From Bdellovibrionota bacterium (GTDB lineage: Bacteria; Bdellovibrionota; UBA2394), in contig JBMTHG010000002.1 of the NCBI GenBank assembly GCA_049436045.1, positions 1 to 47,201 of the forward strand: DNA of 47,201 nucleotides. The letters are read 5' to 3'. Under the pieces are notes generated by a model. That model was not told the DNA's origin. It searched no databases and worked only from the letters and a program-made list of their open reading frames with translations. Shown here piece after piece: positions 16,768 through 47,201 of the stretch; within the stretch, counting starts at the first letter, position 1, and every line of letters starts with the position of its first letter. Position numbers and translations under genes: made by a program.

Positions 16768-17547
16768 ATGAAAGAGATCTCGATCGTTTCATGGAATATC
16801 AATGGGTTGCGAGCCGTTTTAAAGAAAGGCCTGAACGACTTTCTTGAGCAGCGAAAGCCAGATGTTGTTTGCTTGCAAGAGATTAAATGCTTTGAAAATC
16901 AGTTAGATGAAAAAGAGAAGTCGGAGCTCGAACAAGCTTATCAGCTTTATTGGCATCCTGCCGAGCGCCCCGGATACAGCGGTGTGATGAGTCTTGATCG
17001 AGGATTGGTCAAAGGCACTCAATTTGGTTTTGGCCTCAAAAAATTTGATTCTGAGGGGCGCGTGCTCATTCATGATTTCGGCGATTTTGAGCTTTTGAAT
17101 TGCTATTTTCCAAATGGTGGAGCGAGTGAAGAGAGACATTTTTTTAAAATGGATTTTCTGAAAGAATTTCTTCAATTCCTAAAAAAGCGGCAGAAAGAAA
17201 AGCCTTTGATTGTGACGGGCGATATCAATATCGCTCACAAAGAAATAGATATTCATGATCCTGTTAGACTGGATGGTGAGAGCGGATTTAAACCTGAGGA
17301 GAGGGCTTGGATGGATGAATTGCACGCTGCAGGTTTTCAAGACGTCTTTCGTCATTTTTTTCCTGACCAGCAAGATGAGTATAGTTGGTGGTCTTATCGG
17401 GCGGGTGCACGTCAAAGAAATAAAGGCTGGAGAATCGATTATTTCATCGCTTCAAATCAGATCTTAGATCGAGTTTCTTCGATTCAGCATTTGCCTAAGA
17501 TTCTAGGTTCAGATCATTGCCCTTTAGAGCTAAAAATTCAGGTCTAG
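16768..17547 (+). CDS. xthA: Exodeoxyribonuclease III (AP endonuclease)
   Basis: VSWNINGLRA, CLQEIK, GDINIAH, WSYR...GWRIDY and SDHCPL motifs. Confidence 0.9.
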   Translation: MKEISIVSWNINGLRAVLKKGLNDFLEQRKPDVVCLQEIKCFENQLDEKEKSELEQAYQLYWHPAERPGYSGVMSLDRGLVKGTQFGFGLKKFDSEGRVLIHDFGDFELLNCYFPNGGASEERHFFKMDFLKEFLQFLKKRQKEKPLIVTGDINIAHKEIDIHDPVRLDGESGFKPEERAWMDELHAAGFQDVFRHFFPDQQDEYSWWSYRAGARQRNKGWRIDYFIASNQILDRVSSIQHLPKILGSDHCPLELKIQV

Positions 17548-19049
17548 GCTTTGAAGGCGTCGGCTTCAGGCAATGAGTTTTCTTGATATTCTTTGCCATC
17601 AAAGCTCAAAAGTCGGAATTGATTTTGAATATTCGTTTGAATATGAACCGGTCTCTTCCAGCACTTTTGAAGGTGCATGAGGGTATCTTTGGCCTTTGCC
17701 AACTGAATCTCACTCGCTTCATAGCGATGCCAAAGATAAAGCTCACCACGATTTTTATAATTGGCATCGACAACGAAAATTCGAGGGTGCCCTCGATTCG
17801 TGAGTTGAAATAAAAGCTGTTGCTTTATTTTTTCAAACTCGCGGGATGCAATTTCATACTCATCCGACTTGGGGTTTTTCTGAAAAGTAAAGAGCTTGTG
17901 TTCGGCGCAAAACTCTGGCGTTAAAAATTCGTCGATAAACATCACATCATTATAGACTTTTCTGACTTCAAAAATCTTTTGTCTTCCAAGCCCTAGATTT
18001 TTATTCCAAGATTTCTTTTCTGTCAGGTTTGGGCAGTTATCATATTCAAGACCAAATTTTCCAGTATTCCATCTCTCTTCAATATCTCTGAAGAGTTCAA
18101 TTCCAATCTTATAAGGATTAAATCTTCCTCCCGCCATCGACACTGTTCCGGCATGAGAGTTGGCATAGTCGATAATTTCAGAATCTTCTAATTTATGCCG
18201 AGTCATGATGTGAGAGTGCCAATAACTTGCCCAGCCCTCGTTCATGATTTTCGTCTGCGCCTGAGGAAGAAAATAATAAGCTTCTTCGCGAATGATCTCT
18301 AGAGTCTCTCTTTCCCAGTTTTCTAGTGGGGCATATTGAATCAAAAATCCAAGAATATCTTGATCAGGTTTTTCAGGAATTCTTTTTTGTTTTTCAAGGG
18401 CATCGATGAGCTTTTGTTTTTGCTGCTCAAGAAACTCAGGTGGATTGATGAACTTATCCATATAATCTTTTGATTTAAGTTTTCCTGGACTAAGACGAGA
18501 TGGATCAATTTCAAAGTTTTCTGGCATGGCACTTGCGATCTTGCCAAAGCGCGCATCTGGATCAATGAGATTATCGATCGAGAGGCAGACATCAATAAAA
18601 GACTCAACACGCTCAACGCCGAGGCGCTCCATAAAACGGCGAATCTTCACACCATGATTTGCCATCATATCGACAGCTTTTCGGTGAGTGTGAGAGAAAA
18701 ACATATTGTTCTTAAAAAAATCAGCGTGTCCATAAACATGAGCCATCACCAATTTTTGATCCATCGTAGTGTTGCCCTTCATCAAATAGGCAATGACAGG
18801 ATCATTGTTGATCACCATTTCATAAATTTTCGAGAGCCCGTAGTTGTAGCTTTTTGAGAGGCGTTCGTAGTCCATTCCAAATGACCAATGAGGATATCGA
18901 TTCGGAAAACCGCCATAAGCGGCCAGCTGATTCATTTCATCGTAATCAACGATTTCAAAAATTGTAGTGTAAAAATCTAGACCATAAGAGACGGCGATTT
19001 TTTCAATCTCTTCTTTGTGCTGTGCAAGTTCTAGAGGCAGATCAGCCAT
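17544..19049 (-). CDS. spoVR: SpoVR/YcgB family protein
   Basis: [38 protein letters not shown]...[14 protein letters not shown] is the SpoVR family core. It is the third gene of the prkA-yeaH-spoVR triad. Confidence 0.9.
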
Positions 19050-19094
19050 AACTTATTTTATCGTGAATTTCTTAAAGCGTCGACCTGAAGGCCA

Positions 19095-20213
19095 TTAATA
19101 ACCTTTATTTAAGAACTCTTTAATCGAGTCGTAGATGGCCTCTTTGTTGGGAATCCTAGACGCAATGATTCTTTCGGCTGAGGCCTCTTTGCTGAAATGC
19201 TCCGTCAGATCTCTGAAAAATTGCCCGCTTCCATAGAGACTCTCGACTTGACCGTAGCAGAACATATTGACCTTAGGCAGAATCTTGTCTTTCAAAAGAT
19301 GAAAGCACTTTTGAGAATCATCAGCGCTCCAATTGTCGCCATCTGAGAAGTGAAAGGGGTAGATATTCCACTCTTGCGGAGGAAAGTGTTTCTCAATCAT
19401 TTCTAAACAGAGCTGATAGGCTGAAGAAATGATCGTTCCTCCTGATTCTCGGGTTGAGAAAAAAGTCTCTCGATCAACCTCATGAGCGGCAGCATCGTGA
19501 ATAATGTATCGAGTTTGAATCCCTTTATATTGAGATCTCAGCCATGTATCGATCCAGAATGACTCTGCGCGTACGATTTCTTTTTGCTCGTCGCCCATAG
19601 AGCCTGAAACGTCCATCATAAAAATAATAACGGCAGAGTTGTTCTCAACAGGCTTAATTTTATAAGACCGATAACGAAAGTCTCGAGATTGGGGAATGAT
19701 TCGCGGATCTTCTTGATCGTAGTCTCCCATGCTGATGTTTCTCTTTAAGGCCTCTTTATAAGTGCGTTTGAAATGAAGAAGAGATTTAGGCCCCAGCTGA
19801 TGAATCGAGTTGTATTTTGTTCTCTCAGCAAGAATATTTTTATCACCCCGCGGCTGAATTCGTGGAAGGCCAAGTTCTGTTCCTAGAATTTCAGCCATCT
19901 CTTCAAAGCTGATGTCGACCTCTTGAATGTGAGCTCCAGGGGTGTTGCCCGCTTGGCCAGCACCATCTTGCGGATCTCCGGCCTGGCCCAGCGAATCGCC
20001 CTCTTTTCCATCGCCAGCTCCAACTCCTTGTTGATCATTTTTGCCAAACTCAAAGTGGGGGAGATCAATGCTCGGAACAGGAATGCTGATGTATTCTTTG
20101 CCTTTTACGCCGAGCATTTCGCCATGAGAAATATACTTTCGCAGATCTTTTTTGATCTTGCCTTTGATGATATTTCTAAAGCGAGCGTGATCGCTGTTGA
20201 TTTTTAAAAACAT
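19095..20213 (-). CDS. yeaH: YeaH/YhbH family protein (DUF444, vWA-like)
   Basis: N-terminal [18 protein letters not shown], a Gly/Asp-rich linker, and the MIDAS-like FMMDVSGSM motif. It starts 8 nt after the prkA stop. Confidence 0.85.
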
Positions 20214-20221
20214 GATTTCGT

Positions 20222-22315
20222 CTACGATTTATCTCTGACGTCTCCCCGAGCAAAAATAGAAGCCACAAAGTTAAGCACATCGGTAGCGCTTTCGTCACTG
20301 TATCCGAAGTTCTTCACTAATCGTGATTTAACAACGTCTATTTTTTCTTGGGTCTCTTTATCTACGACATTTGAAACTAAGCTTGTGAGCTTGATCGAAT
20401 CTTTTTGATCTTCAAAGAGTTTCAATTCAAGCGCCTTATGAAGCCTCTCATTTGTTTTGTAGTTAAAAGTTTTTCCATCAACGGCGAGAGCTCCGATGTA
20501 GTTCATGATTTCTCGTCTGAAGTCATCTTTTCTTGAATCTGGAATATCTATTTTCTCTTCGATGCTTCTCATGAGCTTTTCGTCTGGCTCTTCATATTGA
20601 CCCGTGAATTTATTTTTCACTTTTTCTTTCTGAGTATAGGCCTTCACAGCATCAATATAATTGGCACAAAGTTTTGTGATCGAGTCTTCATCGGCCGAAA
20701 TCGCTCTTTGAACCTCGTTTTTTACAATATCTTCATATTCACTTCTCACGATGCCGAGCAATTCTCGATAGCGCTTTTTGATTTCTTCATTCGAAATTAG
20801 CGAGTGAGCTTTTAAGCCACCTTCGAGTTCATTGAGAACCATGAAAGGGTTAATCGACTGAGCTTCATTTGAAACTAAAGCGTTTGAAATCTTATCTTGA
20901 ATATATCGAGGTGAGATTCCTTCAAGCGCTTCTCTTTTAACCTCTTTTCGAAGCTCTTTGATGTTGTCTTCGGTGAATCCTGGAAGAGTTTTGCCATCAT
21001 AGAGTTTGAGTTTTTGAATCAAGCTTAGATTAGCTTTGCTTGGCTCCTCAAGACGGGTGAGTACGGCCCACATCGCTGCCATCTCTAAAGTGTGAGGAGC
21101 GATATGTTTTCCTTTTACACGAACTTCATTGTAATCTTTTTTGTAGATCTTGATCTCCTCATTCCACTTGGTGATGTAGGGGATATCAATCTTCACCGTT
21201 CGATCGCGAAGTGCTTCCATGAATTCATTGTTTTGCAGTTTTCGATATTCCGGCTCATTCGTATGGCCGATGATCACTTCATCAATGTCGGTTTGAGGAA
21301 ACTTCTTTGGCTTGATTTTGTGTTCTTGCGAAGCGCCTAACAGATCATACAAGAAGGCTACATCTAGCTTTAGAACTTCAATAAACTCAATCAATCCACG
21401 ATTGGCCACGTTGAATTCGCCATCAAAATTAAAGGCTCTCGGGTCAGAGTCACTTCCGAAAAGAGCGATTTTTCTGTAGTTTAAGTCGCCCGTGAGCTCT
21501 GTGGAGTCTTGATTCTTCTCATCTTTGGGTTGAAAAGTCGCAATTCCGCTTCGTTTCTTTTCAGAGAGCTCAAGACGACGAATTCTCACATTTTCTAAAA
21601 CTTTTCGATAATCGCCGCCGTAGTGCTCTAAAAGCACTTGATAAATGAATCGACAAAATGGATTAAGTTCTCCCTCAATTCGAATCTTGTCTTCAGCAGC
21701 TCGATCTTTATTGAGGGTGTTAAGAACCTCAGCACGAACTTCTGGTGGCAAAAGCTTTAAGGGCTCTTCGTTCATGGGGCTTTGTGCTTCTAAGACACCT
21801 TCACCAAAAATGGGTTTGCCCTCAAAATAAATGGGTTCTTTGAGAACCCAGCTGTAGGTGAAAAGTCGACCAGCTTGAGTTTTTGAATAATGCTCCATTC
21901 CCTTTTTCAAAAGTCTTACGATCGTCGATTTTGAGCTGCCGACTGGACCATGAAGCAAAATCACTCGTCGCTCGGGGCCGTATCCTTTTGCGGCCGCTTT
22001 TAAAACGCTCACGAGTTTCATCAACGGCAAATCAAGACCAAAGATGGCGTCTCTGCCGTGATCGATCGGATCATCAAAAAAATTATAATGAATAATAGGC
22101 TTCTTGGCGTCGATGTACTCGCGGGTTCCGTAAGACATAATCATGTCATAGAGACGTTGATGAGCATTGCGGGCGATGCCGGGCTCTTCTTCAATCAGCT
22201 TTAGATAATCCCAAAAACTTCCCGTCCAATTCATCTCACGATAGACATCGAGATGTTTGGGATCAGATAGAATTGATTCAATTCGGGATTGAAGACCAGA
22301 GTCGCCTCTTTGCAT
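20222..22315 (-). CDS. prkA: PrkA/YeaG family serine protein kinase (AAA+ N-terminal domain)
   Basis: Walker [13 protein letters not shown], at the typical ~650-700 aa length. The PrkA C-terminal region is conserved, and the gene has the expected synteny with yeaH and spoVR. Confidence 0.92.
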
Positions 22316-22880: not shown

Positions 22881-23588
22881 ATGCTTCAAGTTTTCTGCGA
22901 TTTTGATGGAACTATTTCTGAAGAAGATAGCTTAAAGCTTTTGTTCCATCATTTTTTGCCCGATCAGTGGCCGGCCTTGCAGGCCCAAATGTACTCCAAA
23001 AAAATTTCAGAGAAAGAGGCTCTTTCTTTAGCTTTAGAACTAATGCCGGTTTCGCCAAAAGAGGCTCGTGATTGGATCTTAGATCGAGTGAAGTTGGATC
23101 CGAGTTTTTTTGAGTTTGCGAATTGGTGTCGAAAGCAGGGTTTCGATCTTCAAATTTTGAGTGGGGGCTTTGATATTTTCATTCATGCTTTGTTTGAAAG
23201 AGACATGATCTTTCACCAGAAAGTGACTTCAAATCAGTTAAGAGATGCCCATTCTTGGAACCTACGAAAATCTTCGGATTCTCGTGACATTTGCGAAGAC
23301 TTTACTCATTGCAAGTGTGCCAGCATGAAGCAACTCACTCGACCAGATGCAAGCTTGGTTTATATCGGAGACGGCTGGACGGATTTTTGCCCGGCCAAAA
23401 AGATGGAATATGTCTTTGCCAAAAAAGATCTGAAAGATTTCATGAAGAGATCAGATAAAAAATTTTTTGAGTTCTCAAACTTTTTTGACATTCAAAAAAC
23501 TTTGGAGGCTCTTCTCACTAAAAATCAAATCGGTAGCCTAGGCTTAAGCGATGAATCTTCGATTTTGATTGAGCCTCTTGAAGCTTGA
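22881..23588 (+). CDS. HAD-IB family phosphatase, MtnX-like
   Basis: CDFDGTIS nucleophile motif, FLPDQWPAL, ILSGGFDIFI and YIGDGWTDFCPA. The architecture and length (235 aa) match my recollection of Bacillus MtnX. No other methionine-salvage genes are nearby. Confidence 0.7.
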   Translation: MLQVFCDFDGTISEEDSLKLLFHHFLPDQWPALQAQMYSKKISEKEALSLALELMPVSPKEARDWILDRVKLDPSFFEFANWCRKQGFDLQILSGGFDIFIHALFERDMIFHQKVTSNQLRDAHSWNLRKSSDSRDICEDFTHCKCASMKQLTRPDASLVYIGDGWTDFCPAKKMEYVFAKKDLKDFMKRSDKKFFEFSNFFDIQKTLEALLTKNQIGSLGLSDESSILIEPLEA

Positions 23589-24945
23589 ATCCTGCGCGAT
23601 TGCCCTCGCCACTAAAGCTTTTTGATAGGTCTTCAAATCGGTAGCCGAGAATAATCTCCTGATCTTTTAAGCCGAGGCTTTTTAAATCCCAGGCCAGACT
23701 TCCACCATACTGAAGAAGCATTTTTTGAGAATTGGGAGTTCCGGTTTGAATGATACCCTGTTCCGTTGATTGAAGTGGACCTTCACTAAATTGATAAAAC
23801 AATAGAAGACCCAAATATCCCTGAAGGCTTAAGAAATAGGGGGATTGCAGTTTCGGACGAAAGGCAATCTCGCCGTAATAGCCAATATTGCTGAACAAAA
23901 TTGGCTGAGCGAGATTTTTATCTCTGAGCTGATTCACGCTAAAAAGATGCCACTGAAATCGAGCCGCTAGTTCAGGCTGAAGAAGCCACTTTTTGATTTG
24001 AAAATCGCGTGAAGCAAAAATTTCGACAGACAAGCGGTGCCATTGGGCTAAAGCATCAGCCGCCTCAATTTGGGCATTATTTCTTTTCACATCAGCTTGA
24101 AGAGCGCTGACCTCATATTGAGCACGCGCCCCCGCATCGACAGAGCCAAACCATCTCCGAAAAATCGAAAACCCAAACTGAAGGTCGATTCCTTCTAAAC
24201 TATAATCGATCAATGGAATGTTGGGGTAAGCCCCACCAACCAAAGTAAAAACTCGCTCTTGATATTGTTGCCAGCCCAGATCAAATTCTAGGGAATACTT
24301 CCACTCCTCAGGTGACTTTGTTTTTTCTGTCACAGACTCGGTGGGAGTGGTTATGAGTTCAAGGCTATCTACTTTTTTTAAAGTGGCGGGAATCTCAATT
24401 CGCTGCTGACTTTTTTGGTCTTCGAGCTCTAAGGCTTCGGTTTGAACAGCTTCTCGTTCGAGCGAAGGGGTATAAGACTGTTCGGTCGATCGCGAAACCT
24501 CTGTTTGTGAGCTAAGATCGCCTAAATACTCTTTTCTGATAAAGCCTTTAATAGGGTATTGATTCTCAAGAAAATACTCGACTTGAAAAAATTCTGCTTC
24601 CTCTCCAAGCACTTTTAGTTTGTCGGCTTGTCGAACCAGCAAGAGCACGCGAGCCTCATTACTGGGTTGGGCTAAAATCTGAGCGACCCGACTTTTGATC
24701 TGAGTTTCAAAGGGAAAGCTTAAGATTGGGGCGCTCTCTTGAGATTCCATTTTTGTTTCAGCAGCCTCAGTTTGAACAGCAGCCGACTCTTCAGAGGGCG
24801 ACGGTTCCTCTTTAGAAGATGGTTCCTCTACGGAAGATGGCTCCTCCACGACGAAAACAGTTTCGGCGAAACTTAAACTAGAAGCGATAATCAAAGCGAA
24901 GCAACAGTGAATGTATAAAAATAGTTTTTTCAAGAGATGCATCAT
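23518..24945 (-). CDS. Secreted composite protein (called OMP-1 here): acidic Pro/Ser/Glu repeat, SH3-like domain, C-terminal outer-membrane beta-barrel
   Basis: Signal peptide LLKKLFLYIHCCFALIIASSLSFA/ETV. A tandem VEEPSS/VEEPSS/KEEPSPSEES repeat follows. The SH3b-like stretch is RVAQILAQPSNEARVLLLVRQADKLKVLGEEAEFFQVEY...KGFIRKEYL. The last ~260 aa are strand-rich and end in LSLGYRFDF (terminal Phe). The start is ATG 24945 or 24942; the ORF track gives GTG 24951. Confidence 0.6.
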   Translation of the reverse strand: MMHLLKKLFLYIHCCFALIIASSLSFAETVFVVEEPSSVEEPSSKEEPSPSEESAAVQTEAAETKMESQESAPILSFPFETQIKSRVAQILAQPSNEARVLLLVRQADKLKVLGEEAEFFQVEYFLENQYPIKGFIRKEYLGDLSSQTEVSRSTEQSYTPSLEREAVQTEALELEDQKSQQRIEIPATLKKVDSLELITTPTESVTEKTKSPEEWKYSLEFDLGWQQYQERVFTLVGGAYPNIPLIDYSLEGIDLQFGFSIFRRWFGSVDAGARAQYEVSALQADVKRNNAQIEAADALAQWHRLSVEIFASRDFQIKKWLLQPELAARFQWHLFSVNQLRDKNLAQPILFSNIGYYGEIAFRPKLQSPYFLSLQGYLGLLLFYQFSEGPLQSTEQGIIQTGTPNSQKMLLQYGGSLAWDLKSLGLKDQEIILGYRFEDLSKSFSGEGNRAGFKLQEAQSKSKIHRLSLGYRFDF

Positions 24946-26509
24946 CCTCACTCATGAAATCATAGCCAATTTGGCCCGAGATATTCGAGCGAAAACGATA
25001 AGAAAGGCTTAAATTTGCATAAAAATCTAAAGACTTTACCCGAATGGGATCTTGCGAGGAGATAGAGCGTGCGATTTCACGCTGACTTCTAAAGAATTGA
25101 AAGTTGCCCTCGATGAAGTATTTCTCATTGGGAATCCAAGAAATATTCTGATTCAGGCTATAGAAGCTGGATTGAAATCTCTTTTGATAAGAGAGGCTAG
25201 TGTCGGTGTCGATATTTTTTGGCCAATTGAGCCGAAGGCCAAGATCACCTCCATAGGCGTTTTTCTTGTTGATGAGCCCAAGATTTTCCTCTTCGGGCTC
25301 TGAGGGATCTGACTCGGGTGTTGGATTTAAAAAGATTTTATCAGAGTCAAAAGTTCGTCTTTCATAGCGCCCAGCAATATAAGGCTGAGCGAAGCGATTG
25401 ATTCGATACGAAACTTTTGTATCTACTCGGTAGCGATGAGATTGATCCAGGCGATCTCCCACTCGCTCTCTTTGAAGGCTTCCATCGTCTGTGAGGTATT
25501 GAACAGAAGAGGCTAAGAGATAGCGATCGATGCGAAATTGAGAAAGACCAAAATTTAATATCCAATTTTTGCTGGGGCGATAAAAAGCTCGCAAGCTAAG
25601 GTGGCTGCTGGATAAAGATTTATCTTTTATCGTGGGCAATTCAAGATGTGAATAATGAAAGAGACTCAGTTCAGGAATCGGAGTGAAATGGCTTCGACTA
25701 AAAAGACTAAATCGATTTAATCCGCCCTTAAAAGTTTCGACATAAAGATTTGAATCAAACAAAAATTTCACCTTTGAATCTTCAGCGAAGTCGGGAATGA
25801 AGTGAAAGGGAATGCCAAACGCAATTCTTTCATGGCTCAGATGTTTTGTGCGCGGATCAGGAGCCAAGCCAGCATAAACTCCTAAGGTCTTCGATTTTTT
25901 CTCATTCCAAGCCCAGTCTGTTCTTAAGCCATCGATGATAATGCCGCCCTCTAAAGATTGTCTTCCCAGCCTGGCCTGAAATAGCTGATTTCCCAATCGG
26001 AAGTCTTTCTCAGCGTAGAGATCGTTGAGATGAAGTCGATATTTTTTGCTTCCATAAAGAGTTCTAGAGTTCAGCAAATGAAATCTAAAATCGCCATCGA
26101 TGAAGGCTCGAAAGTAAGAGGATTTAAACTCTGCTTTTAAGCCAAGGCTTTGAAGAAGAGTGTTTCCGCTTTTAGTATCTTTTGCAGAAACTCCCTCGCC
26201 ATCAGAGCTAATGATTCGCTCAGCGATGATCTCATCGCCTTGAATGATTCTCTCAACACAGCACTGACCATCGGAGCAAGAGACATCATCTCTTTCTTTG
26301 CCATAAGCCACAAAGAGAGGTTCAAGATCGGCGATGTTCTCGGCGTCGCAGTTATCTGTGTCATAAACCTCAAGCACACTCACGCTTGCGAAATTGTCAG
26401 TGAGAAATAGCATCCAAGCGTCAGCATTTCCCTTCAAAGAATTTTCAGCCTGAAGAGGTCTGCTGAAAAGTAATCCGAAAGCGATGATCAAAAAATAAAA
26501 AAACCTCAT
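24878..26509 (-). CDS. Large predicted outer-membrane beta-barrel protein (called OMP-2 here), candidate porin partner of the multiheme cytochrome
   Basis: Signal peptide MRFFYFLIIAFGLLFSRPLQA/ENS, using ATG 26509, which overlaps the cytochrome TGA as ATGA. An N-terminal segment carries 4 Cys (CDAEN...CSDGQCC). About 430 aa of alternating amphipathic strands follow (e.g. LSLRAFYRPSKNWILNFGLSQF, YRVDTKVSYRINRF, FYANLSLSYRFRSNISGQIGYDF), ending in LLLRFDYRF. Confidence 0.65.
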   Translation of the reverse strand: MRFFYFLIIAFGLLFSRPLQAENSLKGNADAWMLFLTDNFASVSVLEVYDTDNCDAENIADLEPLFVAYGKERDDVSCSDGQCCVERIIQGDEIIAERIISSDGEGVSAKDTKSGNTLLQSLGLKAEFKSSYFRAFIDGDFRFHLLNSRTLYGSKKYRLHLNDLYAEKDFRLGNQLFQARLGRQSLEGGIIIDGLRTDWAWNEKKSKTLGVYAGLAPDPRTKHLSHERIAFGIPFHFIPDFAEDSKVKFLFDSNLYVETFKGGLNRFSLFSRSHFTPIPELSLFHYSHLELPTIKDKSLSSSHLSLRAFYRPSKNWILNFGLSQFRIDRYLLASSVQYLTDDGSLQRERVGDRLDQSHRYRVDTKVSYRINRFAQPYIAGRYERRTFDSDKIFLNPTPESDPSEPEEENLGLINKKNAYGGDLGLRLNWPKNIDTDTSLSYQKRFQSSFYSLNQNISWIPNEKYFIEGNFQFFRSQREIARSISSQDPIRVKSLDFYANLSLSYRFRSNISGQIGYDFMSEDDASLEKTIFIHSLLLRFDYRF

Positions 26510-28674
26510 GGGAGAGCACTCCCTCGCCGGATATTCCAATCAATCGGAACATGACAGTTTTCACAGTTGGCCACATTTCGGCCCGAAGCATTGCTGTGCT
26601 GAGGAATATGGGGAACAAATGAATCGGAGTGACAAAAGAAGCAATCACTTGGAAGACCTTGGTAGATATTGTTCACATGACAAGAAGAGCACTCTAGATA
26701 GCGATGAATTCCAGTGAGTCGAAAGCCCGTGGTGTTATGCTGAAAGTGAGTGGGGAGCCAAGATGTTTGATAATGGCAATCGCCGCAGGTGTTGCCCATC
26801 TGCCCCAGATGGATATCATCTTTCTCATGGCACCAGGCACAGAACTCTCCAGTGCCTTGAAGATTGTTGTTCGTCGCATGACAGTCACTACATTCGAGTT
26901 GGTCGTGAAAACCTTCTAATTTAAAAAAGCCAAGATCATGCACCTTCTCTGCGTACTCAAGCTCAAAGCTATTCGTGCTATGACAGCTTTCACAATTGCT
27001 TCCCATTTCACCCTGATGAACATCATAGTGGCAATTCACACACTCGGTGGCGAGTTTTGCGCCAGCAATAAGCTTCACTTGATAGTCGCCCAACAGATGA
27101 TTTTCGTGACACTTTTGGCATGATAGCTCTGTATGTCTTCCCGTGAGTTTCCATCTTCCGATTTCTTCGTGCTTAAAAGACTTTACTTGCTTGAAGCCTT
27201 CGGTCACGTGACAGCTTGAACATTCATTTGACATGGCAGAGCCATGAGGATCGGCATGACAGGATTGGCAATTTGGATTGTCATTATTAGCCGGCATGTT
27301 TTTAAAAACCTGATCCACATGACAAGATAAACAAGCCACTTCGCGATGCTCTCCCGTGAGCGCGAAGTCTGTATTTTTATTATGATCAAATTGAATCCAA
27401 GAAAAGCTAGTCGTCACATGACAAAAAGAGCAGCTTTGATCAATCTCACGCTCGGGGTGAACATTTCGATGACAATCAGAACATTCATCAAACTTGAGAT
27501 TGGTGTAGCTTCCGGTGAAGTGACACTGTTGACAGTCAATCACCATATGTTTTCCATCAAGCGGAAACTCAGTCTTGGCGTGGCGCTCTAGATCAAAAGA
27601 AGAATCATAAAATTTTCGAGTGGGGGAGTGACAGCTTTCGCAGCTTTGATCTGCGAATTGACCGTTGTGATAATCGCCGTGACAATCTGAGCACTGATCA
27701 AATTGATCTGCAGGAACTTTGAAACTTTTTTTGTCTTGATAATGGCAACTCTCGCACTCAACGGCTTCATGATATCCCTCTAATGGAAACTTAGTTTTGC
27801 TATGATCAAATCCATTGGCTGCGATTTGGCCCTCTAGCAAGAGATGATCCCACTTTCGATAAACGCTGTGGCAGTTTGTGCACTCATTTCCAAAGGAGCC
27901 TTTGTGAGGGTCAGAATGGCAATCGGTGCACTGATCAAACTCAAGTGGAGCGAAAGTGGTGACTCGCTTCGTTTTTGGATCGGGTTCATGACATTCGGAG
28001 CATTCTACTTTTTTGTGCAAGCCTTCAAGTTTATAGCGAGTGGTGTCGTGATTGAATGGCATTTTCTTTCTGAGGCGCTTCCAATTCTCAATTCCTGTTG
28101 AATGACACTGCGTACACTCCAAAAGCTTTTTGTCTTTGAATTCGTGTTGGTAGTCATCTTGATGACATTCATAGCAAGTGGTGGGCGCGTTGAGATACGA
28201 GCGGGTTTCTGTTTTTGCTTTCGTCTTGTAATGCTCACGATAAGTCGTGTGGCAGTCATAACATTCCGTTTTGGCGTGTTGGCCGCGAAGAGGGTAGCCT
28301 GTATCCTTTTCGTGATTAAATTCATCGAGCCAGTTTTCTGGCGCAAAAATATCAAAGTCTAAACCTTCATGCTCCATATGACATGAGGAGCATTCGGTCT
28401 TGCCGGCGTGGTAACCCCAATTTTTTTCAATTCGAACTTTTATGTCGAGGTGACAATCCATACATTTTGCATTGTCGAGGTCTCCGCCCAAGGTATTGAT
28501 GTGACAGTTTGAGCAACCTTTTAGTGTGTCATACTCGGCATGACTTTTTGAAAGAGGGCCGGGAGATTGAGTGATCAGTTTTTTTAAGAATTCCTGAGCC
28601 TCCAACTGAACGGGCAGTTGAATAAAGATCAGCGCAAAAACAATCTGAAAAAACCCTCTCATCCCCAAGTCCAT
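26506..28674 (-). CDS. Secreted multiheme c-type cytochrome with 27 CXXCH motifs (nine triheme c7/c3-like modules)
   Basis: I counted 27 CXXCH motifs in the 722-aa translation, and every Cys I can see lies in one. The signal peptide is MRGFFQIVFALIFIQLPVQLEA/QEF. The recurring module is F-x-H-x5-7-L-x-G-x-H-x3-5-CxxCH ... CxDCH-x-D-x-H-x-G-x4-6-CxxCH. The start is ATG 28674 or ATG 28662. Confidence 0.9.
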   Translation of the reverse strand: MDLGMRGFFQIVFALIFIQLPVQLEAQEFLKKLITQSPGPLSKSHAEYDTLKGCSNCHINTLGGDLDNAKCMDCHLDIKVRIEKNWGYHAGKTECSSCHMEHEGLDFDIFAPENWLDEFNHEKDTGYPLRGQHAKTECYDCHTTYREHYKTKAKTETRSYLNAPTTCYECHQDDYQHEFKDKKLLECTQCHSTGIENWKRLRKKMPFNHDTTRYKLEGLHKKVECSECHEPDPKTKRVTTFAPLEFDQCTDCHSDPHKGSFGNECTNCHSVYRKWDHLLLEGQIAANGFDHSKTKFPLEGYHEAVECESCHYQDKKSFKVPADQFDQCSDCHGDYHNGQFADQSCESCHSPTRKFYDSSFDLERHAKTEFPLDGKHMVIDCQQCHFTGSYTNLKFDECSDCHRNVHPEREIDQSCSFCHVTTSFSWIQFDHNKNTDFALTGEHREVACLSCHVDQVFKNMPANNDNPNCQSCHADPHGSAMSNECSSCHVTEGFKQVKSFKHEEIGRWKLTGRHTELSCQKCHENHLLGDYQVKLIAGAKLATECVNCHYDVHQGEMGSNCESCHSTNSFELEYAEKVHDLGFFKLEGFHDQLECSDCHATNNNLQGTGEFCAWCHEKDDIHLGQMGNTCGDCHYQTSWLPTHFQHNTTGFRLTGIHRYLECSSCHVNNIYQGLPSDCFFCHSDSFVPHIPQHSNASGRNVANCENCHVPIDWNIRRGSALP

Positions 28675-28733
28675 ATTTTACGAGAATTGGGGCCGAATCA
28701 CATTAAAAATATTGAATTAAATCAATGTCTTGA

Positions 28734-29381
28734 TCATGGTTTTTGCGGCGCCTGATCAAGATCGGCAAAGCTTGAGCTGAGTCTCGGTAAAAAGGGATGA
28801 ATGCTTGCACACAACTCCTTGTTAAAGGCTGTAAAACCCATTGTTGGTTTAGTTTTGAGAATCTCACTGATACTCATCCACTCCGAGCGATTCACTTTGA
28901 GCCGAATAAAAGGCACGGCTTTTTCTTCTCGCGTCCAAATGACACGAAGCTGAGCTTGAGCTGGAGTTTCATTTTGTTTGGCCTCTTCAGGAGTTTTCTC
29001 CCAATAAGGTGAAGAAGGCTTATTTTGATGCAGCAAAGCAAAAAACGAGAAATCAATTTCATCAATATCAGGATTTTCTCGAAAAGCCCGAGCAGGTGGA
29101 AGCTCTTCTCGATTTTGGCGCGGCGTGTTTTTTCCATAAAGAAAAGCGTGCAGAAATCTGCAAAAGATCTCTTGGTCTGGAATTACATTTTTTGTGACGA
29201 CGGAGTCTTCATACCAAACAGAGGTCTCCAGAACTTTTCCTTTTTTGCGAACCCCTTCTAGAGAATGCCGTCTCTCTTTGTGAAGAGAGCTAAGCGCCCA
29301 ATAGTTTGCTAGATCCTTTTTCTCTTTTGCGGAGGCCGTATTAAAAAAGACGAAAGCCAAGAGGAATACAAAGAAACGCAT
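28734..29381 (-). CDS. Hypothetical secreted protein (~215 aa)
   Basis: The ORF-track entry (28734-29453) is trimmed to ATG 29381, which gives the clean signal peptide MRFFVFLLAFVFFNTASA/KEKK. This start lies 4 nt after the stop of the upstream 65-aa ORF. No family recognised. Confidence 0.5.
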   Translation of the reverse strand: MRFFVFLLAFVFFNTASAKEKKDLANYWALSSLHKERRHSLEGVRKKGKVLETSVWYEDSVVTKNVIPDQEIFCRFLHAFLYGKNTPRQNREELPPARAFRENPDIDEIDFSFFALLHQNKPSSPYWEKTPEEAKQNETPAQAQLRVIWTREEKAVPFIRLKVNRSEWMSISEILKTKPTMGFTAFNKELCASIHPFLPRLSSSFADLDQAPQKP

Positions 29382-29385
29382 AACT

Positions 29386-29583
29386 TCATTTTGGCTGACT
29401 TTCTTTCGAGTCTCCAGAAAAAGCTTTAAATTTGTGAATTGAGTCTCGATCACGAGAAAGCTGAAAGTCTTGGAACTGTCTAATCAGTTCTAAAAGACTT
29501 GATTCAAGCTGCCAGATTTCTTGCAAAAGCTTGAGTTCTAAGCTTTCGATTTCTTCTCGCCATTCTTCACAAAGACATTTCAT
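29386..29583 (-). CDS. Small hypothetical coiled-coil protein (65 aa)
   Basis: The ATG overlaps the comM TGA (ATGA, rc of 29580-29583). A strong GGAGG SD lies 8 nt upstream. There is a heptad-like Leu/Glu pattern (EEIESLELKLLQEIWQLESSLLELIRQF). Confidence 0.4.
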   Translation of the reverse strand: MKCLCEEWREEIESLELKLLQEIWQLESSLLELIRQFQDFQLSRDRDSIHKFKAFSGDSKESQPK

Positions 29584-31010
29584 TCTCTTTCCTCCAGTTT
29601 CTCAAAAAAGTTTTTAAGATTTTGACTCTCAGTATCATTCACCTGATTGACACCAAAAAACTTAGACCACGTCAGAAGCATCTCGACCCAAAGGCGTTGC
29701 TGCCGAGCATTTTTGAAGGCCGAAAGATCAATTTCATGAAGTTGAGGTCGATTTTTTTCTGCCCATGAAAGACGTTCGCAAATTTTTTGAAACTCAAACT
29801 CGGGGGCTTGTGGCTCATCTTTGAAAGTCCACCACAAAACTCGATGAAAACGCTCGAGCAGAGGCTCAGATAGCCTCGCCTGATAAGAATAAAATTGAGC
29901 TGAGCTACAAACGCAGGCCTTTTTTGATCCATGCTTTCCGCAACGACAGGGATTCATGGCGGCAAGCAGTTGAATATCTGCCGGAAAACTTTTCTTGCCG
30001 CCTTGGCGATGGATGCAGAGTTTTTTTTCTTCGAGAGGCTCGCGAAGAGCTTCTAAAACATTGCGCTGAAACTCGGGCAATTCATCGAGAAATAAAATAC
30101 CACGATGGGCGCGGCTGATGGCTCCGGCATAGATTTGACGATGACCGCCTCCTACAATTGAAGCCGCAGAGCTTGTGTGATGAGGGGCTTCAAATCCTCT
30201 TTGAGACAAATCTTTAAATTCAAGGTTTTTAGTTTCAGCAGGAGAAGAATATTTAAACTTTTCTGACCAAAACTTTGGCGCGAGTGGCCGCTGAAGATCT
30301 TGAAGAGCATGACACCAGGAGCTCTTTCCCACGCCTGGGCTACCGTTAAGAAGAACATTCCATCGGCCTAAGCTGGCGAGCGACCAAAACAAAAATTGAT
30401 CATGGCTGCCACGCATTTTATTCCAGCGCGTTTGCAATTTTGGATCGGGCCATGACGATCGAGATAAATCAGAGCTGACTTCGATTGTAAAAGCTTCTTT
30501 TGGCTCTAAGAGCTCAGCAGCGCTATCGCAAAAATGCACTTTGCTTTTCAAGAAGGGCAGAATCTTTTCGAGATTGTTTTTGGAGTTTGAAAAAAAGATT
30601 GAATCAGCTTGGGATTCCTGAGCCAACAGAACATGGCCAAGAATCGATTCTGTTTCTCTGATTTTTCCGTTGAGCTCCAGTTCACCCCAGAAAAAATATT
30701 TTTTTTCGATAAGAGGAATGTGACCAAGTACCTGCAATATTGCATGAAAAATTCCAAGGTCTAAATGACTGCCTTCTTTTGAGAGGTCTCCCGGCTTGAG
30801 ATAAACTAAGACTTTTTGATTGGGTAATTCGATTCCCACTTGATGAAGGCTAGCCAAGATTCGATCTTTGCCCTCCCGAACCATATTTTGAGGAAGGCCA
30901 ATAATATCGAATCGGGGAAGTCCTTTTCGTAATAAAACTTGAATTTCTATTTCTTGTAAGCCATGGGAGGTGTAGCAAGTCGTCCAGGCTTGAGCGAATG
31001 ATGCAGTCAT
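29580..31010 (-). CDS. comM: YifB/ComM family Mg-chelatase-like AAA+ ATPase
   Basis: An N-terminal Lon-protease-like/ChlI domain is followed by Walker A NGSPGVGKSS, Walker B ILFLDELPEF, and the LLAAMNPCRCG motif. Confidence 0.9.
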   Translation of the reverse strand: MTASFAQAWTTCYTSHGLQEIEIQVLLRKGLPRFDIIGLPQNMVREGKDRILASLHQVGIELPNQKVLVYLKPGDLSKEGSHLDLGIFHAILQVLGHIPLIEKKYFFWGELELNGKIRETESILGHVLLAQESQADSIFFSNSKNNLEKILPFLKSKVHFCDSAAELLEPKEAFTIEVSSDLSRSSWPDPKLQTRWNKMRGSHDQFLFWSLASLGRWNVLLNGSPGVGKSSWCHALQDLQRPLAPKFWSEKFKYSSPAETKNLEFKDLSQRGFEAPHHTSSAASIVGGGHRQIYAGAISRAHRGILFLDELPEFQRNVLEALREPLEEKKLCIHRQGGKKSFPADIQLLAAMNPCRCGKHGSKKACVCSSAQFYSYQARLSEPLLERFHRVLWWTFKDEPQAPEFEFQKICERLSWAEKNRPQLHEIDLSAFKNARQQRLWVEMLLTWSKFFGVNQVNDTESQNLKNFFEKLEERE

Positions 31011-31101
31011 CTCGCACTGAATTGCAAGATTCTAGGTAGTCTTAAGTTCGCCATTTAAGGCCGCCTCGAGATGTATCCGAAAAAAAAACACGAAATTTTC
31101 G

Positions 31102-31136
31102 AAAAAAAAGCCCGAGTGTCCAAGCTCGGGCTTTTT
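31102..31136. terminator. Bidirectional Rho-independent terminator (functionally ends the minus-strand lipoprotein genes)
   Basis: A8, then GCCCGAG (31110-31116), an 8-nt loop, CTCGGGC (31125-31131), then T5. Read on the minus strand, the hairpin is followed by T8. Confidence 0.7.
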
Positions 31137-31205: not shown

Positions 31206-31991
31206 TTATTTTGAACTTTTGTTCGAAGACCAAAGAGATCCACGAGAAGGAATCCTAACAAAATTCACTTGTGATCGTCTGTTCGGCTCTTCTACCACTG
31301 ATTCTATTCCCTCTGATTCTGTCGAGGCTGTTTCTGCATTAGAAACCTGAGTTTTGATTTCGACAACTCCTTCATCTTCTGCAGGGCGCGCCAAAAGATG
31401 GGGAACTTGATCGGCCGCATCGGCCACTTCATTCGAATTCTCGACCTTCCCTTCTGCCGAGCTGGCTTTCCTTTGCTCGTTAATCTTATCTTTAGCTTTT
31501 CGCAAAGTGGCTTCGAGACTTACGATTTTTTCAACGAAGCAATCTTCATCAAAGCTTAAGTTGGCAGCTTCTGTTTTTGGAAAGAGCTGTGACAAAGTCG
31601 CCATCATTCCGATTTGAGTTAACTGCTGCTTTTCAGACGAATCTCGCAAGTAATCAAAGAGCTGAGCTTGGCTGGCTTCGAAAGACTTTATTCGGGCATG
31701 CTCAAGTTCCATTTTTTCTTGATGGCGCTTCTCTTCGCGTTTCTCTCTTGCTTCTTCTCGTTTAATCATTTCTTGTTGAAAAGCACTTAGGCCTTCAGAG
31801 TTTCCTTTTTCTTTTCCAGGAACGCTACCTTCTGTATTGGCTCCTGCTGTCGATTTAGTCTTTGGAGCTAATGCCTGGCTATTTGAAGCGCTCGAGTTTT
31901 GAGCCGCATTTTTTTTAACATCTCTCGGTGTCGCACAAGCAATAAAAATTTGAGATATACCGACGATCATTATTAGATTTACTACTTTCAT
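31206..31991 (-). CDS. Hypothetical lipoprotein, Ser/Asn/Glu-rich with a coiled-coil segment
   Basis: ATG 31991 is preceded by an AGGGGGA SD 7 nt upstream. The lipobox is MKVVNLIMIVGISQIFIAC. The charged coiled coil is QQEMIKREEAREKREEKRHQEKMELEHARIK. The ORF-track start at 32051 (ATGA overlap with the upstream gene) is an alternative. Confidence 0.55.
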   Translation of the reverse strand: MKVVNLIMIVGISQIFIACATPRDVKKNAAQNSSASNSQALAPKTKSTAGANTEGSVPGKEKGNSEGLSAFQQEMIKREEAREKREEKRHQEKMELEHARIKSFEASQAQLFDYLRDSSEKQQLTQIGMMATLSQLFPKTEAANLSFDEDCFVEKIVSLEATLRKAKDKINEQRKASSAEGKVENSNEVADAADQVPHLLARPAEDEGVVEIKTQVSNAETASTESEGIESVVEEPNRRSQVNFVRIPSRGSLWSSNKSSK

Positions 31992-32047
31992 TGTTAATCC
32001 CCCTTTAAGATTTTTTTGATTTTTAAAATTCTTTAGATTTTTTCTGG

Positions 32048-32818
32048 TCATCTCTGACTCTCTGTAGCTGTTTCGAAAATCACATTAAGCCCGCTTAATT
32101 CAGCCGCCTGATGTGCATTGGCAATCAAACACTCAACATCCTCATCGATTCGCGGAGGGGCTAGTTTGGCACCTCCATCTTGTTTTTCTTCTGAGGCCGA
32201 TGAGTTTTTGAAAAAGACGATTCTATCGGCCTCTGAATTTGCAGATGTTAGAACTAATCGGGGAGCCTCTGCATCCACTGAAGATGGCTCTGAATCGACT
32301 GAAGTCGCTGAAAAAGTTGAAATTTCTGCTCGTGGTGAGCTCACTGATCCAGAAGAGCTTTCTTTTTCTTCTCCAGTAATAGAGCCGACTAGAGACTTCG
32401 TATTGTCGATGATCTTTTCACCTTTTTCGAAAATCGATCCGTTTAAAACCGAAGCAAACAAAAGCATCATTCCCATGCCTTGAAACTGACTCCAGGCATC
32501 AGAGCGAGTGAGTGGTGCGCCCGCATAAGGGCTATTCGCTCTCGGAACAAAGCCAGTGTTGGCTTCCGAATTCCCTTGAATTCCAGAATTTTGCGAATTT
32601 CCAGAGTTTGATGATGGTAAACCAGAGTTTGAATTCGCGCGAGACTTGCCACGAGATTCGGCATCTTTGGCAAATTTTTCTCCCGCCGTGATTCTTGGTC
32701 CAGCGTCGCTACGGTATATGGTTTGATCTGAAGCTGGTACCGTGTTGGAACTGCAAGCAACTAACAATGGACTCGCCACTATGAGAAGCAGTGCAGTTCG
32801 CTTAAATTGAGCGAACAT
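32048..32818 (-). CDS. Hypothetical lipoprotein, low-complexity Ser/Asn/Gly-rich
   Basis: Signal peptide plus lipobox MFAQFKRTALLLIVASPLLVAC/SSN, with an AAAGGGGG SD upstream. It has an SNSGNSQNSGIQGNS low-complexity region and one internal hydrophobic stretch (GMGMMLLFASVLNGSIF). Confidence 0.55.
   Translation of the reverse strand: MFAQFKRTALLLIVASPLLVACSSNTVPASDQTIYRSDAGPRITAGEKFAKDAESRGKSRANSNSGLPSSNSGNSQNSGIQGNSEANTGFVPRANSPYAGAPLTRSDAWSQFQGMGMMLLFASVLNGSIFEKGEKIIDNTKSLVGSITGEEKESSSGSVSSPRAEISTFSATSVDSEPSSVDAEAPRLVLTSANSEADRIVFFKNSSASEEKQDGGAKLAPPRIDEDVECLIANAHQAAELSGLNVIFETATESQR

Positions 32819-46373: not shown

Positions 46374-47201
<828 letters not shown>

Follow-up and report, generated by a model that had tools for sequence, protein, structure and literature searches.

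The 47,201-nucleotide stretch of DNA analyzed here (the window; contig JBMTHG010000002.1 of assembly GCA_049436045.1, from a Bdellovibrionota bacterium) encodes on its minus strand a c-type cytochrome of 722 amino acids (aa) with 27 CXXCH heme-binding motifs (26506-28674) and, immediately downstream, a 543-aa outer-membrane β-barrel protein termed OMP-2 (24878-26509). We found that these two genes are kept together as one inherited unit in a range of phyla. A first-pass annotation of the window had placed the cytochrome in a functional cluster of 6 genes and had coupled it to 2 barrels, OMP-2 and OMP-1. The functional unit is smaller than this, and consists of the cytochrome together with OMP-2. 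The best reading of the pair, which we favor with some reserve, is that it constitutes a porin-cytochrome conduit through which electrons pass the outer membrane and, probably, the full width of the periplasm.

The cytochrome and OMP-2 genes form a conserved pair

A cytochrome-seeded scan, restricted to one genome per species, yielded 69 loci, and barrels were called by iterating a hidden Markov model (HMM) of the OMP-2 family three times over these loci. A barrel of the OMP-2 family adjoined the related multiheme cytochrome or cytochromes in 41 of the 44 assessable loci outside the Chloroflexota, bearing out the coupling of the cytochrome to OMP-2 proposed by the first-pass annotation. The same HMM found no such barrel in any of the 22 assessable Chloroflexota loci. 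Members of the Chloroflexota are assumed to lack an outer membrane. The barrel-positive loci belonged to Bdellovibrionota, Nitrospinota, Myxococcota, Acidobacteriota, Aminicenantes, Bacteroidota and unclassified metagenome-assembled genomes (MAGs), together with one Planctomycetota locus.

As read from the sequence, the stop codon of the cytochrome gene and the start codon of OMP-2 overlap as ATGA in the window, and in all of the relatives inspected the cytochrome and barrel genes either directly adjoin or overlap. The pair recurred in unrelated gene contexts (L007/L018, L008/L023 (Nitrospinota), L017, L019-L022, L024, L029, L030 and L044). The L007 and L008 cytochromes are 36-37% identical to that of the window, and the open reading frame (ORF) overlapping their stop codon encodes an OMP-2 homologue (hhalign probability 92-93%). 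In Acidobacteriota, Bacteroidota, Planctomycetota and Aminicenantes, barrels of this family adjoin much larger cytochromes, and the heme number of barrel-partner cytochromes ranges from 6 to at least 63. The OMP-2 family is rare, with a profile search retrieving 33 clusters at E<=1e-3 among 1.84 billion representative proteins. A barrel-seeded scan of metagenomes, based on a sub-family alignment, returned one locus (L078), in which a 27-heme cytochrome lies directly upstream of the barrel; every OMP-2-family locus that was recovered adjoins a multiheme cytochrome.

The lineage of the window itself comprises uncultured Bacteriovoracaceae/Bdellovibrionota MAGs, in which the order comM-orf65-p215-cytochrome-OMP-2-OMP-1 is kept and the barrel lies directly 3' of the cytochrome in all loci with enough DNA. 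Adjacency within this lineage proves little, since the whole ~20-kb region running from DnaK through HAD-HU-PrkA-SpoVR is syntenic. A mirror-tree comparison of cytochrome and barrel identities gave r=0.96 overall; the correlation was weak among distant pairs and revealed nothing beyond clade structure.

The loci also contained several unusual arrangements. In 2 Aminicenantes loci (L076:5985-8697 and L077:6905-9617) a gene for an OMP-2-family barrel is preceded by that of a 6-heme cytochrome and followed by that of a 9-heme cytochrome, resembling the classical three-part Pcc order. A Bdellovibrionales contig (L032:3-2959) carries a fragment of an OMP-2-family barrel gene upstream of a 27-heme cytochrome, which suggests either tandem cytochrome-barrel modules or a reversed order. 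Finally, Bryobacteraceae/Bryobacterales MAGs contained single ORFs with 112 (L045:2510-10771) and 98 (L039:3194-10633) CXXCH motifs, both of which run past the end of the DNA that was fetched, and both of which exceed the heme maximum of 85 given by He et al. 2017 (PMC5566968).

The cytochrome is composed of nine triheme modules

The cytochrome contains exactly 27 CXXCH motifs, 54 Cys and 59 His. Alignment of its modules resolved nine tandem c7-type triheme units, at 26.7 aa per heme, that follow the pattern F(D/N)H..T.F.L.G.H....CxxCH ... CxxCH.D.H.G....CxxCH. Since each module carries three extra conserved His, all 27 hemes should be bis-His coordinated. The protein is exported by a Sec signal peptide without a lipobox, and would thus be soluble in the periplasm unless held by a partner. 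None of the 27 heme motifs varied across 18 relatives, which extended to an identity as low as 38%, and the ~30 orthologues found in metagenomes were 52-81% identical and 700-770 aa in length.

Pfam Cytochrome_C7 matched the protein with E=4e-28 (97.5 against a cut-off of 24.8), while NCBIfam TIGR04257 (nanowire_3heme) scored 15.6 bits, below its cut-off of 40. By these sequence scores, the cytochrome is c7-like and falls outside the curated TIGR04257 domain family. Searching the Protein Data Bank (PDB) with a profile built from 50 relatives identified the dodecaheme cytochrome GSU1996 (3OV0) as the best match (E=1e-15), and also matched MtrA (6R2Q_A, E=8e-7), MtrC and MtrF. A phmmer search of the PDB with the single cytochrome sequence gave no match. 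The AlphaFold2 model of the cytochrome had a predicted local distance difference test (pLDDT) score of 74 and a predicted template modeling (pTM) score of 0.34.

The N-terminal head of the cytochrome, SPGPLSKSH...CSNCH (28501-28569, minus strand), is kept in all related multiheme cytochromes. Written as SPGxLSxxH...CxxCH, it is N-terminal in the first cytochromes encoded at L027, L033, L037, L040, L076 and L077, and it is also present in cytochromes encoded directly after the gene for an inner-membrane protein (IMP; see below). Residues P38, G39, L41 and H45 of the head are invariant among cytochrome relatives, and pLDDT in the AlphaFold2 model peaks in the head. We presume that it represents the docking end for the inner-membrane partner. 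A shared C-terminal motif for barrel docking was sought across all barrel-linked cytochromes and was not found.

OMP-2 and its barrel family

OMP-2 has a signal peptide and a C-terminus ending in DYRF. Its AlphaFold2 model (pLDDT 64) is a β-barrel for which 22 strands were counted from DSSP, with long loops alternating with short turns and with both the N- and C-termini on the periplasmic side. The sequence gave no Pfam (E<=1), NCBIfam or PDB match, and OMP-2 matched no substrate-channel family. None of 34 members of the OMP-2 family matched Pfam PF11854 (MtrB_PioB) at E<=0.01, and the OMP-2 profile failed to retrieve MtrB (6R2Q_B) from the PDB. The family alignment displays an invariant motif, GRQ..x..DG...G.FGGL.PDP, and OMP-2 aligned with distant family members at hhalign probabilities of 92-97%.

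An insert of ~80 aa (residues 38-116; 26162-26398, minus strand) was identified by alignment between predicted strands 1 and 2 of OMP-2, corresponding to the predicted extracellular loop L1. The insert contains four invariant Cys (C54, C78, C83 and C84), is confined to the clade of the window, and is missing from distant barrels of 420-470 aa. Model confidence is low in this region, which could be a disulfide-stabilized surface loop or a plug. The ORFs at the OMP-2 and OMP-1 coordinates contain no CXXCH motif of the kind found in a Cyc2-type fusion.

An inner-membrane partner accompanies the cytochrome in relatives

Outside the lineage of the window, the cytochrome gene is almost always immediately preceded by one for a membrane protein of di-heme-b type that carries a pair of WX3HX13H motifs; ~45 loci show this arrangement. 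Two WX3HX13H motifs and five transmembrane helices are the signature of the conserved IMP in the predicted PCC3 and PCC4 systems (PMC5566968). The proteins at our loci were either stand-alone, at ~200-345 aa, or domain fusions, the latter containing cNMP_binding and 4Fe-4S domains with weak DUF4405/Ferric_reduct matches, or Fer4 and Pyr_redox domains. In Chloroflexota, IMP-plus-cytochrome pairs occur without a barrel. Since no IMP gene is present within the 47-kb window, an IMP-type partner of the window cytochrome would have to be encoded outside of it.

Fusions of a cNMP-binding-like domain, two 4Fe-4S clusters and the doubled WX3HX13H motif were found at L007:4643-6610, L017:3446-5425, L019:4635-6944, L021:3614-5593 and L024:4915-6915, each directly upstream of a cytochrome with 23-30 hemes. 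These cNMP-binding/4Fe-4S/di-heme-b fusions could be exporters of electrons from the cytoplasm to the periplasm.

Comparison with known and predicted conduits

PCC3 is a predicted conduit of neutrophilic Fe(II) oxidizers (He et al. 2017; PMC5566968), with the gene order IMP, periplasmic cytochrome, extracellular cytochrome and porin, as represented by Slit_1446-1449 of Sideroxydans lithotrophicus ES-1 (PMC11429942). PCC3 periplasmic cytochromes possess 21, 24 or 27 hemes and have been proposed to span the periplasm (PMC5566968, PMC9900912); their high heme count has also been proposed to act as a capacitor (PMC9900912). The window pair resembles PCC3 in that its cytochrome has a heme number that is a multiple of three, few amino acids per heme and repeated modules (27 hemes in nine modules), and in that the porin gene lies downstream of the cytochrome gene, with OMP-2 overlapping the cytochrome stop codon. 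In contrast to PCC3, the window lacks an extracellular multiheme cytochrome and, within its 47 kb, an IMP, leaving two of the four components. Moreover, PCC3 porins are predicted to have up to 42 transmembrane segments, compared to ~22 strands in the 543 aa of OMP-2, and the PCC3 host is an iron oxidizer, whereas the window host, a member of the Bdellovibrionota, is not.

Sequence comparison with PCC3 was made via the MAG loci L047 and L049, in place of Slit_1446-1449; the first cytochromes of these PCC3-ordered Gammaproteobacteria loci share 29-30% identity with that of the window. L049 reproduces the PCC3 gene order, and the relation of its porin (883 aa) to the OMP-2 family was marginal (hhalign 34%). 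The same gene order occurs with an OMP-2-family barrel in Bacteroidota and Acidobacteriota loci. The window contains a reduced PCC3-like module, made up of a periplasmic multiheme cytochrome and a porin.

MtrAB, PioAB and MtoAB resemble the window pair in that two genes encode a porin and a multiheme cytochrome exported by Sec, a surface cytochrome not being obligatory; in MtrAB, the cytochrome gene also precedes the porin gene. They differ from it in heme number (10 compared to 27) and in the barrel, since OMP-2 has no MtrB_PioB or MtrB sequence match. The MtrB barrel, which encloses a decaheme cytochrome of the MtrA type, has 26 strands in the 6R2Q structure. Compared to the ~22 strands of the OMP-2 model, 28 transmembrane motifs were predicted for MtrB (PMC4245776). 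Two-gene clusters of a porin and a periplasmic cytochrome are represented by PioAB/MtoAB and by the pcc clusters of Anaeromyxobacter and Kuenenia, and the larger periplasmic cytochromes of the latter two have been proposed to cross the membrane alone (PMC4245776). By analogy, the window pair would work like PioAB/MtoAB or the Anaeromyxobacter pcc, with a heme number ~3 times higher and a barrel that is unrelated to theirs.

Porins of the Geobacter-type Pcc systems (OmbB-OmaB-OmcB and Ext; Shi et al. 2014) have 18-22 predicted strands and their periplasmic cytochromes 5-14 hemes (PMC4245776). They are similar to the window pair in the strand number of a barrel lying beside a multiheme cytochrome (18-22 compared to ~22). 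They differ from it in heme number, which is 27 for the window cytochrome, and in that the window lacks a 12-heme lipoprotein cytochrome. Tandem c7-type triheme domains, as found in the window cytochrome, are shared by GSU1996, GSU0592 and GSU2210 of Geobacter sulfurreducens. GSU2210 consists of nine c7-type domains with 27 hemes, and GSU1996 has one His-Met heme per domain, compared to the exclusively bis-His hemes expected for the window cytochrome.

To our knowledge, no porin-cytochrome conduit has previously been described in Bdellovibrionota, a group not known to be associated with extracellular electron transfer. The statement of the first-pass annotation that no system of this architecture had been described nevertheless went too far, given PioAB/MtoAB, the pcc clusters of Anaeromyxobacter and Kuenenia (PMC4245776), and the 21-27-heme cytochromes of PCC3 (PMC5566968, PMC9900912). 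A 2026 paper further reported a 'gigantic' porin-cytochrome cluster in Lentimicrobium (Bacteroidota) that is without synteny to characterized modules (PMC13013709).

A model for electron transfer across the envelope

We propose that one end of the heme chain would sit inside the lumen of the OMP-2 barrel and reach the cell surface, by analogy with MtrAB and PioAB/MtoAB, while the N-terminal head would face the inner membrane and swap electrons with an IMP-type partner. Chains such as those in the GSU1996 and MtrA structures extend ~0.9-1 nm per heme. At this spacing, 27 hemes would measure ~22-27 nm, long enough for a single polypeptide to connect the inner membrane with the cell surface; neither a diffusible periplasmic shuttle nor a separate surface cytochrome would then be needed. 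Electrons may be exported to Fe, Mn or humic acceptors, or may be taken up, as the sequence does not tell the direction of flow. A trans-envelope electron conduit of this type is probably real and functional.

A more elaborate version of this model, which we offer as a tentative possibility, envisions one 27-heme wire running from the inner membrane to the surface, with a dedicated 22-strand barrel, from a family not recognized before, as the sheath around one of its ends. The pair would represent a minimal version of an ancient and modular IMP/wire/barrel system that occurs in at least 8 phyla and acquires a barrel solely in envelopes with an outer membrane; in one lineage of Bdellovibrionota, vertical inheritance would have fixed the module among housekeeping genes, detached from the IMP gene. 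Fixation of the module in such a region would suggest a constitutive envelope function, for example extracellular respiration or a redox interaction with prey or minerals.

Several observations weigh against a conduit. Foldseek found no structural neighbors for the AlphaFold2 model of the cytochrome. Confidence in the OMP-2 model was moderate, and its lumen is presumed to have room for a triheme module. Foldseek searches with OMP-2 returned generic outer-membrane barrels of all sizes, with MtrB (6R2Q_B) at rank 8 (TM-score 0.35) and with a score no better than those of other barrels. Three loci from Planctomycetota or Gammaproteobacteria lacked an OMP-2-family barrel, and the correlation between the barrel and a diderm envelope relies on the taxon labels of MAGs and on the assumed lack of an outer membrane in Chloroflexota. 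In addition, PCC3 systems are themselves predictions, and the OMP-2 barrel family is known from sequence alone. Finally, genes for an IMP, a quinol dehydrogenase, ccm/ccs functions and a surface cytochrome were absent from the 47-kb window and from ~10 kb around the cytochromes of its own lineage. When ORFs in the window with a length of 120 aa or more were scanned with Pfam, no ccm gene and no quinol dehydrogenase were found, and a motif scan found the cytochrome to be the sole ORF with more than one CXXCH, in each case as the first-pass annotation had reported.

An alternative is that OMP-2 serves as an anchor or assembly factor for a cytochrome that is a wholly periplasmic wire or capacitor, with electrons taking some other route. 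We consider this explanation unlikely. It is consistent with the lack of a surface cytochrome and of a lipobox, with the capacitor proposal for the high heme counts of PCC3 (PMC9900912), and with the dependence of the OMP-2 lumen size on a model; moreover, the barrel-less IMP-cytochrome pairs of Chloroflexota indicate that a cytochrome of this kind can work without a barrel. However, the strict pairing with a large barrel of ~22 strands, rather than with a small anchor, points to a sheath, and Chloroflexota are precisely the taxon from which the barrel is missing. The cytochrome/barrel/cytochrome order of the Aminicenantes loci, which is typical of trans-membrane Pcc conduits (PMC4245776), likewise argues against a mere anchor.

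If the cytochrome and OMP-2 do form a conduit, then one cytochrome and one barrel would represent the simplest known electron conduit to span the envelope, and candidate extracellular electron transfer would be extended to Bdellovibrionota. One modular family would then unite PCC3 with the 'gigantic' clusters of Bacteroidota (PMC13013709), with the giant Acidobacteriota cytochromes and with the IMP-cytochrome pairs of Chloroflexota. The combination of an SPG-head cytochrome, a GRQ..DG..GL.PDP barrel and a 2xWX3HX13H IMP would provide an easily scored genomic marker for this family. The compact two-gene unit is also attractive for heterologous expression, as a means of asking if periplasmic shuttles can be substituted by a long heme wire.

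The four remaining genes of the cluster

Reading of the window confirmed all 6 minus-strand ORFs at 23518-31010; the ORFs agreed with the first-pass annotation, as did the junctions between them, the terminator upstream of them and the 27 CXXCH motifs. The putative transcription unit begins with comM (29580-31010), encoding a Mg-chelatase-like AAA+ ATPase of the YifB/ComM family as judged from Pfam (Mg_chelatase, 4.5e-57; ChlI, 4.6e-28); TIGR00368 scored 251 bits, below its cut-off. A terminator-like hairpin of the intrinsic type (GCCCGAG...CTCGGGC followed by T8; ~31100-31136, minus strand) lies upstream of comM. The small orf65 (29386-29583) overlaps the comM stop codon as ATGA, with GGAGG 9 nt upstream, and is followed after 4 nt by p215 (28734-29381), whose start was assigned to Met25 of a longer ORF and whose signal peptide is MRFFVFLLAFVFFNTASA. 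The cytochrome follows p215 after 59 nt. OMP-1 (23518-24942/24945) begins within OMP-2, the two genes overlapping by 65-68 nt.

The orf65 product was 42-51% identical in several members of the lineage, and orf65 is probably a real gene that encodes a small cytoplasmic coiled-coil protein. The secreted p215 protein (~215 aa) is restricted to the lineage of the window, and its alignment shows two Cys that are invariant as well as conservation of His39 and His78; it gave no Pfam, NCBIfam or PDB match, and no relatives were detected outside the lineage. The genes upstream of the L007 cytochrome were compared to p215 as possible counterparts, and no relation was found. OMP-1 consists of a signal peptide, a low-complexity linker rich in Pro, Ser and Glu, an SH3b-like domain (nt ~24523-24675, minus strand), a second linker and a β-rich C-terminal domain of ~260 aa that ends in F (C-terminus FDF). 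The SH3b-like assignment derives from weak matches, to Pfam with the single sequence (E=0.07) and to 2KYB and 2KT8 in a PDB profile search (E=2-3e-4). OMP-1 evolves fast, with 10 orthologues at 22-28% identity, and probably forms a small barrel that carries a domain for wall binding in the periplasm.

We also considered whether comM, orf65, p215, the cytochrome, OMP-2 and OMP-1 might act as one system with two cooperating barrels, which we judge to be rather improbable, and more so than an anchoring role for OMP-2. The overlaps or short gaps throughout the cluster and the placement of the only terminator upstream of comM are compatible with such a system, as are the OMP-2/OMP-1 overlap that recurs in several relatives and the block from comM to OMP-2, which is unbroken in ~14 members of the lineage, whereas the flanking junctions do get interrupted. 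This block provides only weak evidence for an operon, and adjacency carries little information in a lineage that is syntenic all the way from DnaK to PrkA/SpoVR. Furthermore, none of comM, orf65, p215 and OMP-1 is found with the cytochrome and its barrel at the distant loci, so that the 6-gene functional cluster of the first-pass annotation reduces to linkage within one syntenic lineage. Its coupling of the cytochrome to 2 barrels fared no better, since OMP-1 has no homology to the OMP-2 family, leading us to reject it as a relative of OMP-2, and since 4.7 kb of sugar-cassette genes separate OMP-2 from OMP-1 at L004. ComM/YifB is moreover a family of housekeeping ATPases, and comM adjoins the cytochrome only inside the syntenic lineage; for these reasons a role for comM in tetrapyrrole or heme metabolism was rejected. 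OMP-1 is accessory or merely syntenic and lies outside the conserved core, and p215, orf65, comM and OMP-1 appear to be co-transcribed neighbors of the pair to which no relevance is assigned. The reverse extreme, in which a periplasmic cytochrome merely happens to lie beside ordinary nutrient porins, is very improbable: OMP-2 lacks a diagnostic family match and its fold matches include general porins, but conservation of the adjacency, with start/stop overlap, over several phyla and unrelated contexts effectively refutes it, and the rarity of a barrel family whose recovered loci always lie beside a multiheme cytochrome also speaks against it.

The cassette at L004 (11913-16546), from a CG11 'Deltaproteobacteria' MAG, has the composition NeuB / hexapeptide transferase / WbqC / DegT / methyltransferase.

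Genomic setting

The remainder of the window is made up of housekeeping genes, including those for L13/S9, RpoN, SecA, GAPDH-PGK-TIM, SecG, MurB and LepB, together with PrkA-DUF444-SpoVR, HU, DnaK, an AcrB-type pump and PolA, as well as a partial 16S gene at 46374-47201. The 3' end of OMP-1 overlaps that of a convergent gene for a HAD-family phosphatase (22881-23588, plus strand) by 71 nt (23518-23588). Between dnaK and comM (31206-32818) lie two ORFs encoding secreted low-complexity proteins of 281 and 256 aa with no family match; the content of this slot varies among relatives, with L005 and L006 carrying an HNH gene and a transposase gene instead. On the other side of the cluster, 17544-22315 encodes a triad of PrkA, DUF444 (YeaH-like) and SpoVR-like proteins, with PrkA being 80-83% identical in all relatives of the lineage.

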